This document shows, piece after piece, positions 2,986 to 53,620 of a stretch of DNA of 64,000 nt. The stretch lies in assembly GCA_951406725.2 (NCBI GenBank), contig OX597826.1:45880001-45944000 (forward strand). The letters run 5' to 3'. This DNA is from Octopus vulgaris (lineage: Eukaryota). The notes beneath the pieces are model-generated. The model searched no databases and was not told where the DNA came from. It saw nothing but the letters and a program-made list of their open reading frames with translations. Within the stretch, counting starts at the first letter, position 1; every line of letters begins with the position of its first letter. Both the position numbers and the translations under genes were made by a program.

Positions 2986-3120
2986 AGATTAATCAGCCGA
3001 AATTGCGAAGATGATCCGGTTCTTGACTGAAGATTAAAGGCTTCGAATGTCCCGTTCGTGTTTTTTGTGTCGTCTTCTAAATGTTTCACGTTCTTGTCCC
3101 AGTTTGTATTTTTTTACTTT
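2986..3120 (+). mobile_element. 5'-truncated copy of permuted-HHR family 2
   Basis: agattaatcagccGAAAttgc...tcttgaCTGAAGAttaaaggct matches 37505-37690(-) and 53392-53620 but lacks the UH strand. Confidence 0.75.
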
Positions 3121-3121
3121 T

Positions 3122-3168
<47 letters not shown>

Positions 3169-3318
3169 CCAAATATATACGTTTTATTTATTATTTTGCA
3201 CATTACTTAATCATCGGTATATTATTGTTATTTTATATTTAATATTTCTATTATATGTAATTTTCTAAATGGTGTAATTTAATTGTTCATTTTGAATTGA
3301 TAAAAGGTGTTTTTTTTC

Positions 3319-7721: not shown

Positions 7722-7935
7722 TTTATTTAAAGCAGCAGAAAATTCAACAAAATCTGTTACTCTGAGTTTCTCGTTGCCGTTCATCAGACAGTTTTTGCTA
7801 GTGATGAATGGCAACGAGAAACTCAGAGTAACAGATTTTGTTGAATTTTCTGCTGCTTAGATAAAGCATATTGCTCTACCACTGGTATTTGAGTACTCTT
7901 TCTTCCACCTTGTTTCACATTTATGTGTTTACTCC

Positions 7936-10739: not shown

Positions 10740-11715
10740 TATTACTGTCAACAAATATAAATAATTAAGGTTCTGTGTTTTTGAGATAGCATGGTGAGAA
10801 ATAAATATTCATTTTCACGGTTATGGAAACAAAAACAAAAAAGTTTTAAAGACGAAAAATAAACAAACAAAAAGCATAGTTGATGTATATTTGACATCTA
10901 TACTCGACATGGGAGAATTTAAATTGTTATAATAATGAAGAAATATTGATGCTGTTTTATTTTGTTGTTGATACTATTATTAGTTTTGTTGTTCCTTTTG
11001 TTGTTGTTTTTGCTATTGCTTCAGTGATCATTAAAATGATATCAAAGTTATGGGTAAATTCGATTGGCTGTTTCCTACTTCAATAGAATTAAAGGAACAA
11101 ATCCCTAATCACCATCCTGTTGTTGCTACCGCTGTTGTTTCGTTAATGCTGGAGTTTGAGATATAACGGAATTATCTTTAAAGCTTTATACAATCAAATC
11201 CAGAACTTCACCTCCACTTCGTTCAAATTCAAACAGGGATCGATATTTTTAACCTTTCTGTTTTTTATTGCTCATTGATATAAAGAATTGTAATTATATG
11301 GGAAATTTCGATCGGTTATTTCGCAGTTCAATAGAATTGAACAAAGAAATCCACCATCGTTATCCTGTTGTTGTTGTTGTTGTTGTTGTCGTCGTCGTCG
11401 TCGTCGTTGTTGTTGTTGTTCTCTCCCTGAGGCACGCACACGGCTTTTGAGAGCTTCTTCCCAATTTTCATCTAGAACCGGACCTCATGTTTCGAAATGC
11501 TGTGCTGCTCCTATGGGGTTAGCCCACAGGAGAATGCTATGATTAGGGAGAGTGCTAGATGGTAAAAAATCAGTAGATCTCACATTAAGATATACTATGA
11601 TCATTTCTGGGTTCGAGAATCGCAATCACGATTTTGCGATCGAGACTGCAGCACCCAAACCACTAAATAAATAAATAGATAATTGAATAAATAAATAAAT
11701 AAATAAATAAATAAA

Positions 11716-11955
11716 TGTGTTGCAAGCAACTTGCACATGCATGTCCTATCAGTCGAGAGCTCCGCATACCGGAAGCCAGCAAGTGTATCTGGTCATCAGG
11801 TGAGAATGCGCGCCATTTCAGGGCCTACCTCTCAACGGCATCAATGCGCACCGGCCCCCCTAACTGATATGATGCTCTGCTTCCTAGATCAACTGGTTGT
11901 CAAATAAAACTCAATATGTTTCTAGCCATCGCTCATCGTCTCTTAATGTCTTACA
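11716..11955 (+). mobile_element. Possible solo LTR
   Basis: TGT...ACA termini, GC-richer island, AATAAA about 45 nt before the end. No TSD found. Confidence 0.35.
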
Positions 11956-37398: not shown

Positions 37399-37588
37399 TA
37401 TATATATAAGAACAAATAATGGCAAACGGATATTTGGCGCTAAAATAAAGAGCTGCAATATTTTCAGCATACCGTCCGATAACGTGTATGTGTGTATGTA
37501 TACATATATGTATATAAAAAAATACAAAATGGGACAAGAACGCAAAACATCCAGAAGACGATACAAAAAACACGGACGGTTCATTCGA

Positions 37589-37654
37589 AGCCTTTAATCT
37601 TCAGTCAAGAACCGGACCATCCTCGCAATTTCGGCTGATTAATCTTGAGATTGC
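37589..37654 (-). ncRNA. Non-circularly permuted hammerhead candidate, family 2
   Basis: Minus strand: gcaa-TC-tcaaga-ttaatc-agcc-GAAA-ttgc-(14 nt)-tcttga-CTGAAGA-ttaaa-ggct. Confidence 0.7.
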
Positions 37655-38429
37655 TCCAATCTGGCTAGCCCCAAGGAAAACCTGACCGCACGCGCGCGCA
37701 TATATGAAACAGGGCAAAGAAGAAAATGGAGTAAGTCTTTTTAATGCTCAGTTGTTTCATTTGAATTCAGTCTAATCAATCTTGCCACATTATGCAATAA
37801 TACATGCTACTATTAACTACTCTCCAAGTGACATTGAAATGGCACGTCCAATCAGATTAATCAGAATTACATGTTTCAAATGACATTATACAATTCTTCT
37901 TCAAATGGGGCCAAGCGTTGATTAGGTGGAGGGTTTCGCAAAGATTTATTATTATAATTAGTACGTTTCCTCATCTTTTGGAATTGTTGTCCTTGCTCCC
38001 TTTGCTAAGGAAAAATGCTCTCCATGTAAGTCTCCGAATAAAAGAGCTATTAGCTGTTCGATTTTCTCCATCTCGTAAGTAAACTTCAGTATGCGAGTTA
38101 GTCAAATATTTGACGGTTTTCAATATAACAATCATTTCACCCTACTAAGCTCATTCACAGATATTGGCTATCAGATGACACATTAATCTGGAGATTGCTT
38201 TATCAAATGAATGTCTGAAAATCTGGTAAAATCCATAAAGCTTTTATAATGACAAGCATGAAATATGGAGTGAGAAAATGTTTTTAATATATCAATTGGC
38301 AGTTGTTTCTAATGACGTTATACAGCTCTTCTTCAGTATATATATATATATATATATATCCCTCTACGAAAAGATCTCAGAATTTTAATTGATTTGCTTT
38401 TCGCAGGAAGGAAAGTTTCTTGTCGAAGA

Positions 38430-38491
38430 TACGTCTCGCTTTTATCCTTTGAAACGTAGAGTAGATGAAACCTTAGCGACTGAAAAAGGGG
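38430..38491 (+). ncRNA. Non-circularly permuted hammerhead candidate, family 1 (core G8A), in an (AT)n-flanked element at 38359-38700
   Basis: tacg-TC-tcgct-tttatccttt-GAAA-cgta-(16 nt)-agcga-CTGAAAA-agggg. Confidence 0.65.
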
Positions 38492-38721
38492 TTTTTTCGT
38501 TGTGTTAACTGTCCTGTACTCCATTTTTTTGTTTTTAAAAAAAATGTCCTGTTCCTTTGGTTTGTGTCTATGTTTTTTCGTTTCTCTATGTGTTCGACGT
38601 CCATTTGGTGTCCTGTACTCATATATGCGTGTATATGTACATGTAGAGGTTGGTACGTACATATATGTTTATATATATGCATATGTTTTATTTCTTTTAT
38701 TAATATATATATATATATATA

Positions 38722-42374: not shown

Positions 42375-42734
42375 ATATATGTATATATATATATATATTA
42401 CATATTCATCTGCTGTCTCTTCAATAGTTATTCCTTCATAATTATTACCGTCTGTGTGGTAGACGAGGAGTTAGGCATGTGTAAACTTGGTGATAAGGTT
42501 CATATCTAATGTTTACTCTGTCAAAGGTGATTCTGGTCATTGTTGAAAGATAGTCAGAGATATAAAGACCTAACAAGCAGCAACTGAGGAACGAAATTTT
42601 CATTTTAGGGGCTAACATGCGTATTACAGTAGCAGCAGTGGTCATAGTAGTAGTAGCAGTAGTGTTTATTTTTCCTTTCTTTTTCTTTTTACTCGTTACA
42701 ATCAGTGGATGCTGAGGCATCGCTTTGAAGGATA

Positions 42735-43660
42735 TTTTTACAACAGAAAAACAGAGTACAGGACATACTACACAAGGAAAAATCCCCTTCATCAGCTGTC
42801 ACTAGTTCGACTCTAGCGTGTCTCGAAGGCAAGACAGAACACGACTCACCAAAATAGTCCTTCCTGCGAGAGAATTAAAATAAAATTACCTCGCAGAGGG
42901 GTAAAAACGATACAAATAAAACGTAAAAACGATACAAATAAAACTACAAAATAAAATACAAGATAGAAATACATGTACAAGAAAATACAATACGAGAAAT
43001 AAAAATAAACGAGAAAACAAACAAGGAAAACAAACGAAAAGGCCTTTTTCTGGCTTACACGCGGCCTTCAAACTGTAAAGACACACATTTGTGTTCCCAT
43101 GCGCGGCCAGAACCTCCTCCGTCTAAACCAGAAAAAGGCCTTTTCGTTTGTTTTTCTTGTTTGCTGTCTTGTTTATTTTTATTTCTCGTATTGTATTTTT
43201 TTTGTACATGTATTTTTATCTTGTATTTTATTTTGTGATTTTATTTGTATCGTTTTTACGTCCTGTTTGTGCTACATTTTTTTCTTGCTTGTTTTTACCC
43301 CTCTGTAAGGTAATTTTATTTTAATTCTCTCGCAGGAAGGACTAGTTTGGCGAGTCGTGTTCTGTCTGGCCTTCGAAACACGCTAGAGTCGAACTAGTGA
43401 CAGCTGATGAAGGGGATTTTTCCTTGTGTAGTATGTCCTGTACTCTGTTTTTCTGTTGCAAAAATTGTTTTTTCCGTTTTCGTTTCTCGTTGAGTTCTAC
43501 GTCTCTGTTTTTCTGTTGTAAAAAAATGGTTTTTCCGTTTTCGTTTCTCGTTGAGTTCTACGTCTAGTTGTGGTGTCCTGTACTCACGTATATATATTTA
43601 TATATGCATGTATATATACATGTAGATGTAGGTACGTACATATATGTTTGTATGTATGCA
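42735..43660. mobile_element. Fold-back element (arms 42735-43061 / 43120-43465, tail to ~43660) carrying a permuted HHR in both arms
   Basis: ~330-bp inverted arms with a 58-bp spacer. The tail is shared with 38500-38700 and 53500-53600. Confidence 0.88.
43356..43415 (+). ncRNA. Non-circularly permuted hammerhead candidate, family 1, intact core
   Basis: cgtg-TT-ctgtc-tggccttc-GAAA-cacg-(16 nt)-gacag-CTGATGA-agggg. The mirror copy at 42784-42843(-) has GAGA instead of GAAA. Confidence 0.7.
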
Positions 43661-43676
43661 TATATTTTATTTATTA

Positions 43677-43721
<45 letters not shown>

Positions 43722-47105: not shown

Positions 47106-47388
47106 AAACTATTGCAGCGTGGAAGGTGTTTATAAGCCATTTAAGAAACACACAAAACCCGTTAGATTCACTTCAACATTTAAATTTAATTTGTCAAAAT
47201 ATTTTCGTCGCTTTGAGACCGCGACGAAAATATTTTGACAAATTAAATTTAAATGTTCAACTGAATCTAACGGTTTTTGTGTGTTTCTTAAATGGCTTAT
47301 AAACATCTTCCCCGCTGCAATTGTTTTCGTTCCAGCACACGATCTCAGATCCGGTCACTTGCTATGCAAGTACATCTCCGTAATTTTT
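47106..47388. mobile_element. Fold-back element (arms 47106-47210 / 47221-47326, tail to ~47388) retaining half an HHR
   Basis: The centre reads gtcgc(tttgagacc)gcgac-GAAA-ATAT-TT-tgac; the CUGAnGA strand is absent. Confidence 0.8.
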
Positions 47389-48288: not shown

Positions 48289-48468
48289 TCCCGGGTTGAT
48301 TCGGGGTTAACCACAGTAAGTAAGGTACTCAATACATAGCAGAGTAAAATTAATTTATTATATAGAAGGAGCTTCTACAGGACTAGTACTGTTTCATTCA
48401 AGAGAAATCTTCAGGAAGCCCTGAAGATTTCTCTTGAATGACAGTACTAATCCTTCTATATAATAAAT
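48287..48468. mobile_element. Small fold-back element in (AT)n (arms 48353-48415 / 48420-48468)
   Basis: Inverted arms with a left tail. Confidence 0.8.
48371..48419 (-). ncRNA. Type I hammerhead motif
   Basis: Minus strand: gcttc-CTGAAGA-tttc(tctt)gaat-GAAA-cag(tactagtc)ctg-TA-gaagc. Confidence 0.78.
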
Positions 48469-49258: not shown

Positions 49259-50390
49259 CAATTGAGGATAAAATCTTTAAAAGAAATTATCAGTAGTCAG
49301 CGTGAAAAACCTCGTAAGAGAAAAAATCCGTAAATTCTTCCTCTTTGAAAATATTCATTTATATTATATTGAGGGTACTACTATTCGTAGATACCAACAC
49401 GCTAAGAGGGACCAATGCGGTCAAAACTACTAAAAATAAACAAAATTTTACCGAATGCAAAACTTCAAAACACATCATTTTAAAAAGAATTCAGTTACAT
49501 ATCACATGTGATTTCGCATTTAATGCAGAATATGCATTTCATGTTCGTCAGTGCAACAAACTCAAGAAATATAAGAAAAAACATAACATTACAAACTCGA
49601 TAGCCAACCGTAGAATTCGTCGTAGCTTGTACGAATGTTTATCCTTACATATCTATGAAAATGGCGGGCTTTTTCGCAATGCATTTCGGTAACAAATTGC
49701 CTAGTCGGAATAAAAATTCAGTATTGAACTATTCCGGTGAAAAATATAAATTAACAATTGAGGATAAAATCTTTAAAAGAAATTATCAGTAGTCAGCGTG
49801 AAAAACCTCGTAAGAGAAAAAATCCGTAAATTCTTCCTCTTTGAAAATATTCATTTATATTATATTGAGGGTACTACTATTCGTATATACCAACACGCTA
49901 AGAGGGACCAATGCGGTCAAAACTACTAAAAATAGGATTTTTTCTCTTACGAGGTTTTTCACGCTGACTACTGATAATTTCTTTTAAAGATTTTATCCTC
50001 AATTGTTAATTTATATTTTTCACCGGAATAGTTCAATACTGAATTTTTATTCCGACTAGGCAATTTGTTACCGAAATGCATTGCGAAAAAGCCCGCCATT
50101 TTCATAGATATGTAAGGATAAACATTCGTACAAGCTACGACGAATTCTACGGTTGGCTATCGAGTTTGTAATGTTATGTTTTTTCTTATATTTCTTGAGT
50201 TTGTTGCACTGACGAACATGAAATGCATATTCTGCATTAAATGCGAAATCACATGTGATATGTAACTGAATTCTTTTTAAAATGATGTGTTTTGAAGTTT
50301 TGCATTCGGTAAAATTTTGTTTATTTTTAGTAGTTTTGACCGCATTGGTCCCTCTTAGCGTGTTGGTATCTACGAATAGTAGTACCCTCA

Positions 50391-50398
<8 letters not shown>
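49256..50398. mobile_element. Retrozyme-like element: 496-bp unit, partial tandem copy (49752-49934) and inverted copy (49935-50398), in (AT)n
   Basis: taacaattgaggataaaatc recurs at 49256 and 49752. 49935-50398 is the reverse complement of the array; copies look near-identical. Confidence 0.9.
50203..50266 (+). ncRNA. Type I hammerhead motif (mirror copy at 49494-49557 on -)
   Basis: gttgca-CTGACGA-a-cat...atg-c-GAAA-tcacatgtga-TA-tgtaac; palindromic stem III. Confidence 0.8.
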
Positions 50399-50458
<60 letters not shown>

Positions 50459-52999: not shown

Positions 53000-53620
53000 A
53001 TAACATCGTCTTGGCTTAACAGCCCTCATCGTTTGTTTTTACTGTGTTATTCTCTTTGTTCTGTCTTTTGCTGTTTTTATTTTGATTGTTTTTACCGTCT
53101 TGTTTTGTTCTTACTGTCCTGTTCTTGTTACTACTTTTACCCTTCCGCAAAAAATCCCAAATTTTATTTAATTTGCTTTGCGGGAAGGATTGCTTCAACG
53201 AAGTCGCATCTTGTCCTTACATTCGAAAACACGGAGTAGACGAAACAGAGACAACTGAAGAAGGGGAATATTCCTTGTGCTGTATGTCTTATGCTCTGTT
53301 TCTTCGTTGTTTGAAAAATAGTTCGTTCCCATGTTTTTGTTTTTATGTTTTCGTTTCTCATTGTGTTCTACGTTTTTTTTTTTGATGTCCACAATCAGCC
53401 GAAATTGTGAAGATGATCCGGTTCTTGACTGAAGATTGAAGGCTTCGAATGTCTCGTCCGTGTTTTTTGTATCGTCTTCTAAATGTTTCACGTTCTTGTC
53501 CCAGTTTGTATTTGTTTACATTTACATATGTATATATACATATAGATGTAGGTATGTACATATATGTATGCATATATGCATATATCTATATATTATTTGT
53601 ATTATTATATGATCGAACGC
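53000..53620 (+). mobile_element. Chimeric element: permuted-HHR family 1 (motif 53205-53266) joined to family 2 (from 53392)
   Basis: cgca-TC-ttgtc-cttacattc-GAAA-acacg...gacaa-CTGAAGA-agggg, then aatcagccGAAA...tcttgaCTGAAGA. Confidence 0.75.

Follow-up and report, generated by a model that had tools for sequence, protein, structure and literature searches.

A probable hammerhead ribozyme of non-circular strand order, opened between A9 and G10.1, in octopus retroelements

We describe a candidate self-cleaving RNA of Octopus vulgaris that, judged from sequence comparison, is probably a hammerhead belonging, as a circular permutant, to the non-circular SGC/CSG/GCS class, with its core opened between A9 and G10.1. 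It lies in a stretch of 64,000 nucleotides (GenBank assembly GCA_951406725.2, contig OX597826.1, positions 45,880,001 to 45,944,000 of the forward strand), hereafter the window, to which coordinates without a locus name refer. In the scheme of Eckert et al. 2023 (PMC10085705), as set out in its available text, the hammerhead is split into the blocks S, G and C, each assumed to be uninterrupted. The block order encountered here is already published as type SGC, and it is the proposed split of block C after A9 that appears to be new. Read 5' to 3', the proposed RNA would comprise helix IV, a spacer or a hairpin (helix V), a stem II strand starting at G10.1, helix P0, block S, a short linker, block G, the second strand of P0, stem I with CUGAnGA, and the second strand of helix IV (Table 1). 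It is a hammerhead on all features testable here and fails one defining feature of type SGC in the published text, namely an unbroken block C with the stem II strand within 1-2 nt of CUGAnGA, with which family 1, the repeat family of the copy at 43356, is still compatible when taken by itself.

Table 1. Elements of the proposed ribozyme and related repeats in the window
Feature	Position	Strand	Basis
Helix IV, 5' strand AATTCTCT; pairs with 43411-43418	43323..43330	+	stacking -10.0 kcal/mol, covariation, register test
Spacer CGCAG, 5 nt, between helix IV and G10.1; predicted hairpin (helix V) in several other families	43331..43335	+	
Leader GAAGG, proposed 5' strand of stem II; G43336 = proposed G10.1	43336..43340	+	covariation, stacking -8.7 kcal/mol
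Helix P0, 5' strand; pairs with 43388-43398; counterpart of the type SGC I-II interaction helix	43341..43351	+	p=1e-4, -17.0 kcal/mol
Block S, 5' part: stem III strand CGTG 43356-59, U16.1 43360, U17 43361	43356..43361	+	read directly
Predicted cut (GUU triplet)	between 43361 and 43362	+	sequence reading
Stem I strand CTGTC, 3' of predicted cut	43362..43366	+	read directly, family alignment
Linker from stem I to stem II, 3 nt, as in published type SGC	43367..43369	+	read directly
Block G: stem II strand CCTTC 43370-74 (C11.1 = 43374); GAAA 43375-78 = G12-A13-A14-A15.1; stem III strand CACG 43379-82	43370..43382	+	read directly, family alignment
Helix P0, 3' strand, stacked directly before stem I; 11 bp in window copy	43388..43398	+	covariation, stacking
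Stem I strand GACAG 43399-403 and catalytic strand C3-A9 CTGATGA 43404-10	43399..43410	+	read directly
Helix IV, 3' strand from A9+1; the alternative stem II strand of the first-pass annotation	43411..43418	+	covariation, register test
Host element: 5'-truncated non-autonomous Penelope-like repeat, subfamily A, ending in (TA)n; 776-nt tandem unit elsewhere	43055..43682	+	
Inverted 5' copy of the same element; GAAA changed to GAGA, ribozyme probably dead	42732..43061	-	
Subfamily B copy; core at 38480 CTGAAAA (G8 lost), C11.1 lost, probably dead	38357..38717	+	
Copy of subfamily C with decayed stems II and III; core at 53255	53004..53373	+	
Second-family copy, same fold, leader GGCT./CAGCC, no G after core; ribozyme complete	37487..37681	-	
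Second-family copy, 5' end 3 nt after predicted cut	2986..3179	+	
Second-family copy, 5' end 8 nt after predicted cut	53393..53609	+	
Restriction-endonuclease-type LINE 3' end; decayed same-fold ribozyme just after stop codon, core at 11799	11715..11944	-	

The hammerhead core and its copies in the genome

Direct reading of 43356-43415 recovered all three core strands in the order S-G-C, as the first-pass annotation had claimed. Its wider propositions, that a hammerhead core in non-circular order lies inside an animal retroelement and that natural non-circular permutations have been reported, are also borne out, the order being that of type SGC in the available text of PMC10085705; the orders of the circular types I, II and III (CGS, GSC and SCG) are not those observed. 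The core elements CUGAnGA, GAAA and UH are all present in the copy at 43356 and are kept across families, and the homologues at 38430 and 53205 indeed have the stems, triplets and linker lengths attributed to them. What had been overlooked were the broken core of the 38430 copy (CTGAAAA; TTTGAAA), which is intact in other copies of its subfamily, a fourth family-1 copy in inverted orientation (42732-43061), and four further copies of the same fold from two other families within the window. Among the family-1 copies of the window that at 43356 alone is intact. Its GUU triplet is one of the slower cleavage triplets.

A pattern of the G and C blocks matches the 2.8-Gb genome at 5,934 places and its reversed control at 4, and a strict descriptor found 1 match in 264 kb (the window plus unselected genome) and none in the reversed sequence, the complemented sequence or 20 shuffles. 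Of 123 viral loci holding both core blocks by chance, none also has stems I and III. Rfam gave no hammerhead match for 43250-43500 (E<=10) and none among the best 150 of 217 matches for the whole window, and the proposed comparison with published permuted-hammerhead models failed to capture the motif, 0 of 138 copies fitting the SGC descriptors in the available text of PMC10085705; the expectation that standard hammerhead searches would miss it thus holds.

These 138 distinct copies were collected from the same genome by homology and pattern searches, with selection only on the core blocks and stems I and III. They form 31 clusters, one of which (cluster 31, L166) was rejected as a chance match inside another repeat; it was included in the cross-family permutation and in the first test of helix IV (p=0.006) and left out of the register test. 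The core is kept across the other 30. With the cut-site bases left free and selection by stems only, 118 of 120 copies retain U16.1; the base at position 17 is C in 64, U in 41, A in 15 and G in none. As seen at L156, L157 and L161, position 7 accepts any of the four bases, depending on the family, with CUGAGGA (N7 = G) in copies of a single subfamily and CUGACGA in one family. A G at A9+2 occurs in 26 of the 30 clusters, a figure that is partly pattern-selected. Its apparent conservation was rejected because the search patterns had selected it: an unbiased search for the family group without this G gave 3,292 matches on one strand against 9 for the control, with leaders such as GGCTG facing CAGCC among the matches listed. 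Adding both pattern searches (5,934 plus about twice 3,292) yields approximately 12,000 intact-core copies in the genome.

Helices of the fold and the pairing of stem II

Genome copies were collected and aligned, as had been proposed, and in the alignment of 27 family-1 copies stems I and III covary as claimed, together with a stem II that is formed with the upstream leader. Stem I is paired in 98.5% of the cells (double changes in 4/5 pairs), stem III in 94.1% (3/5), the leader stem II in 96.3% (3/5, with 5 double-change cells), P0 in 70.4% (5/6) and helix IV in 79.2% (4/8). For the five-helix model as a whole 86.1% of the cells are paired, with double changes in 19 of 29 pairs; its covariation score was reached by 0 of 500 shuffles, and slid controls dropped to 44-51% paired. 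Because related sequences can beat shuffles without any structure, the slid control and the cross-family tests weigh more. The minimum-energy fold contains P0, stem III and an IV-like pairing, at a stability not above that of shuffles (z -1.34); single-sequence folding cannot display pseudoknots. At the level of sequence, then, covariation establishes stems I and III, the leader stem II, P0 and helix IV.

The strand before GAAA varies by family, with 17 distinct 5-mers in 17 divergent families. In a cross-family permutation a family's own leader pairs with this strand better than the leaders of other families do (mean run 3.59 vs 2.37, p=7e-5), and the bases after CUGAnGA display no covariation with it (1.47 vs 1.42, p=0.43), all such permutation p-values overstating independence owing to the common ancestry of the families. 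Across the 30 clusters, pairing with the leader at the five stem II positions is seen in 30, 23, 29, 30 and 26 (in the best-matching register, hence inflated) and downstream pairing in 26, 17, 20, 17 and 11, where the count of 26 is inflated because two of the search patterns required G at A9+2. Stacking energies for the copy at 43356 are -8.7 kcal/mol with the leader helix and -4.1 kcal/mol with the downstream one. With the leader, stem II is closed next to G12 by a G-C pair, the G of which the leader supplies. Hence, the stem II of the first-pass annotation, CCTTC with GGGG after the core, is on the cross-family evidence probably not the working helix, and the pairing of CCTTC with the upstream GAAGG, which had been listed as the weak point of that assignment, proves to be the helix that covaries across families.

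Were the RNA nevertheless a plain type SGC as first drawn, the active stem II of family 1 would be CUUC with GGGG after CUGAUGA-A, and the leader would be an inhibitory switch that slows cleavage. We hold this to be unlikely. The downstream helix is paired in 93.5% of family-1 cells, mostly by G-U, and the extra base after A9 agrees with the SGC constructs and descriptors in the available text of PMC10085705; many copies run past the cut site, so cleavage is partial, as a leader acting as inhibitor would have it. Nevertheless, the downstream helix lacks cross-family covariation, shows 1 double-change cell versus 5 for the leader, is about 4.6 kcal/mol weaker, and cannot form in thousands of copies of related families, and the very same bases make helix IV in an exact register.

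Two helices that had gone unnoticed accompany the leader stem II. P0 ties the leader to the linker that immediately precedes stem I (p=1e-4, cross-family permutation), its 5' strand beginning 0-1 nt after the leader's stem II strand in the best-preserved families, and it constitutes the contact holding stems I and II together that is a feature of hammerheads. In helix IV the bases after A9 pair upstream of the leader (p=0.006, control 0.77); the register test over 22 families gave p=8e-5 at A9+1, 0.003 at +2 and at least 0.15 further on. This register also bears on a hybrid core, in which the G at A9+2 would be G10.1 and make a single pair with C11.1, the leader continuing the helix from 11.2 as in the pseudoknot hammerhead. 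Such a core appears decidedly improbable. The G is present in 26/30 clusters, and a crystal structure shows a stem II of one pair that an outside strand prolongs (available text of PMC11300833); against this, the G is partly pattern-selected and is absent in the most abundant family group, helix IV starts at A9+1, and several ends of Naiad retroelements, read by eye in the accessible supplement of PMC8557442, lack the G and always have in their leader a G of their own facing C11.1.

Many of the pairs in helix IV of family 1 are G-U, and its upstream strand is reminiscent of a 3' splice site, the sequence before the leader at 43310-43335 and 38385-38405 showing TTTAAT, a pyrimidine tract and CAG; most copies of subfamily C lack the AG. 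As a third pairing option, the G-run at 43411-43424, behind the core, can fold into a local hairpin (-6.9 kcal/mol), which is broken in subfamily B.

Host elements and the 5' ends of copies

The repeat of family 1 does not code for protein: its tandem units measure 776-925 nt and contain no ORF. Its 3' end is fixed at about 210-230 nt after the core and runs into (TA)n, its 5' ends are variable, and there are inverted 5' copies. Tandem or inverted 5'-truncated copies, a fixed 3' end and microsatellite targets constitute the pattern of Penelope-like elements in the accessible parts of PMC8557442, and family 1 accordingly has the traits of a non-autonomous member. Among the fetched loci there is no autonomous partner with RT and GIY-YIG domains that carries its terminal sequence: a young family with RT and GIY-YIG next to L003, which by eye carries an apparent type I hammerhead, has inserted into the same microsatellite independently, and L184 and L235 are likewise separate insertions. 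The genome does house a very young autonomous Penelope-like family (G000, L091-L120, e.g. L098; L003:1-1260) with open frames of up to 717 aa; 150 of its 22,138 candidates were scored, and the best matches are 100% identical. By eye, it has an apparent variant type I hammerhead with a CCGAAGA core after the ORF. A Pfam search with the L003 protein gave no match, nor did a PDB sequence search.

Three other clusters lie at the 3' ends of LINE ORF remnants, with the ribozyme just after the stop codon in L247 and L212/L214 and farther downstream of ORF fragments in L207/L217. These remnants have a restriction-endonuclease-like motif, with a weak Pfam zf-RVT match in 2/5 fragments, and are presumably R2-superfamily, HERO-like elements. 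The ribozyme falls within the last ~150 nt of the LINE-like elements (L247 oriented 1440-1600; L212 and L214 1410-1600; L207; L217; window 11715-11944 on the minus strand), where cleavage would detach the ORF from the 3' end.

If reverse transcription reaches the 5' end of a cleaved RNA, the copies should begin just after the cut. Of the first 30 matches to a pattern blind to the upstream sequence, 29 are genuine, L141 being left out as non-family; 12 of the 29 5' ends lie at 0..+13 relative to the predicted cut, 1 at -14..-1, none at -28..-15, 1 at -42..-29 and 15 farther up, i.e. a step of 12 versus 1 around the cut (p=0.003). In a 3'-anchored sample of 40 copies, 10 stop short of the core, 20 extend beyond the retrieved sequence, and the ends of 10 could be located, at -46, -43, -2, 5, 9, 10, 17, 17, 21 and 36; 8 of these 10 are at -2..+36 and none at -3..-42. 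Fifteen incidental copies of the second family include 5 that start at 0..+27 and 1 at -28..-1, which is not significant alone (p=0.22). We take the pile-up of 5' ends just 3' of the predicted cut as indirect evidence of cleavage in vivo, which would be partial, given that about half of the copies extend beyond the site.

The least likely of the alternatives, in our opinion very improbable, is that the fold is real but non-catalytic, a relic or a protein-binding structure, with the 5' ends produced by drop-off of the reverse transcriptase: the evidence of cleavage is indeed indirect, three of the four family-1 copies of the window have damaged cores, and in a lizard Penelope-like element, going by the available account, hammerhead cleavage is protein-dependent and dispensable for insertion in vitro, yet the catalytic bases and the NUH rule are retained while every stem changes sequence, and the step in the 5' ends coincides with the predicted bond, where by our reasoning the polymerase has already displaced the 3' strands of all helices.

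For a catalytic RNA opened between A9 and G10.1, established hammerhead chemistry would make G12 the base and the 2'-OH of G8 the acid, and a cut after position 17 (43361) would leave a 2',3'-cyclic phosphate and a 5'-OH. From the geometry, P0 and the 3-nt linker may form a distal junction that keeps stems I and II side by side and replaces the loop-loop contact, and helix IV at A9 may substitute for the A9-G10.1 bond. Known hammerheads, in the accessible parts of the sources, tolerate an extra base at this link, from which its flexibility follows, and we infer that it might also carry a helix. Every tandem unit (or terminal repeat) would hold a single ribozyme, placed some 260-270 nt ahead of the 3' end of the element. 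Read-through transcripts would be cleaved in part and thereby acquire their 5' ends, and a reverse transcriptase of the Penelope type, acting in trans, would copy the RNA into (TA)n sites, so that copies would begin just after the cut or farther upstream.

Other repeats of the window merit mention. CTGATGA cores at 7787 (-), 53855 (-) and 54154 (+) look like decayed type I hammerheads of other repeats and are not passed by the descriptor. A long hairpin repeat at 47115-47317, probably a MITE and related to L166, has the top Rfam score of the window (MIR2670), which is below threshold, and 49351-50409 is an inverted repeat with 475-nt arms that are 99% complementary and 109 nt apart. Short palindromic insertions centred on hammerhead core fragments, possibly products of fold-back retrotransposition, are seen at 48380-48460 and in L141.

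Relation to published hammerheads and Naiad elements

According to the available text of PMC10085705, type SGC with the same helices cleaves in vitro, and the RNAs reported there are metatranscriptomic, with a single bacterial GCS candidate from genomes of known organisms. The octopus RNA shares with this type (HRIMA-1 and variants) the block order, the core bases and the short linker between stems I and II, as well as a helix that connects stems I and II at their distal ends, the position held here by P0 with a strand in the 5' leader. It departs from it in that there stem II and the interaction helix follow CUGAnGA, whereas here both come from the 5' leader; in the split of block C after A9 and the addition of helix IV, with or without V; and in being part of a high-copy animal retroelement rather than a metatranscriptomic RNA. 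With type CSG, of which two natural sequences are published in the same text, it has the circular order of strands in common, but type CSG keeps block C intact and is opened elsewhere.

The type I and minimal hammerheads of Penelope-like elements and non-LTR retrozymes, in the available parts of PMC4209133 and bioRxiv 10.64898/2026.07.22.740005, have several traits in common with family 1: each terminal repeat or tandem unit holds a single ribozyme, the non-autonomous tandem units are of comparable length, and an extra base separates A9 from G10.1. Unlike it, they are circular type I forms, often dimer-dependent, with a short stem III, whereas here full stems within one unit are combined with two pseudoknots; the type I hammerhead in each unit that typifies non-LTR retrozymes is lacking in family 1. 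The pseudoknot-containing hammerhead (Zhan et al. 2024, PMC11300833, as far as available) likewise has its stem II largely replaced by pairing with an outside strand tied to stem I; in it, however, A9 and G10.1 are contiguous, the block order is circular, and the label 'helix IV' denotes another helix. The accessible part of Forgia 2023 shows no such variant; in that of a November 2026 paper, Eckert is one of three references given for hammerhead variants that have additional helices or are permuted differently. The literature covered, with most subscription journals outside it, holds no report of the A9/G10.1-opened connectivity or of non-circular hammerheads in animal retroelements.

We incline to the view that this connectivity, the seventh natural one of the hammerhead, opened at A9/G10.1 with one or two inserted helices, is old and widespread, that it is active in animal retroelements (Naiads of several phyla, restriction-endonuclease-type LINEs and young non-autonomous families) and cuts RNA in vivo, and that it explains the seeming lack of hammerheads in Naiads. 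If so, non-circular ribozymes would move from uncultured RNA samples to animal genomes, with about 12,000 copies, the assumption of uninterruptible blocks would be broken by a connectivity beyond the six proposed in the available text of PMC10085705, and the reported absence from Naiads would receive a testable answer. One fold common to Penelope-like elements and LINEs suggests an exchange of ribozymes between retroelement classes. Likewise, the 5'-end step would offer a genomic read-out of ribozyme cleavage in vivo, previously hard to obtain for such elements, and a core tolerant of a helix at the A9-G10.1 link would provide a new insertion point for engineered ribozyme switches.

In the accessible parts of Craig et al. 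2021 (PMC8557442), Naiads have no canonical hammerhead, but only 'core' or 'half core' strings, in 17. Family 1 is akin to them in its (TA)n targets and its tandem and inverted structure, and differs in that its units have no ORF and thus lack the N-terminal GIY-YIG plus RT feature. Naiad ends are matched only by a sister family, L228-L230, whose loci agree with two octopus consensus sequences of the supplement at their 3' ends; both of these have the split fold. Read by eye, eight Naiad 3' ends have the split form (two octopus, three near-identical ones including Naiad_Aacu and Naiad_Anas, and three unnamed), and six others, in supplement parts 13-16, fit type CSG with an interaction helix; as the available supplement was searched for five 7-letter motifs only, these counts are not a census. 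Of the eight, also by eye, six have no G at A9+2, and most have helix IV and hairpin V. Two further Naiad 3' ends (supplement parts 25-26) share another conserved, structured-looking motif without CUGAnGA, possibly a ribozyme of a different class.
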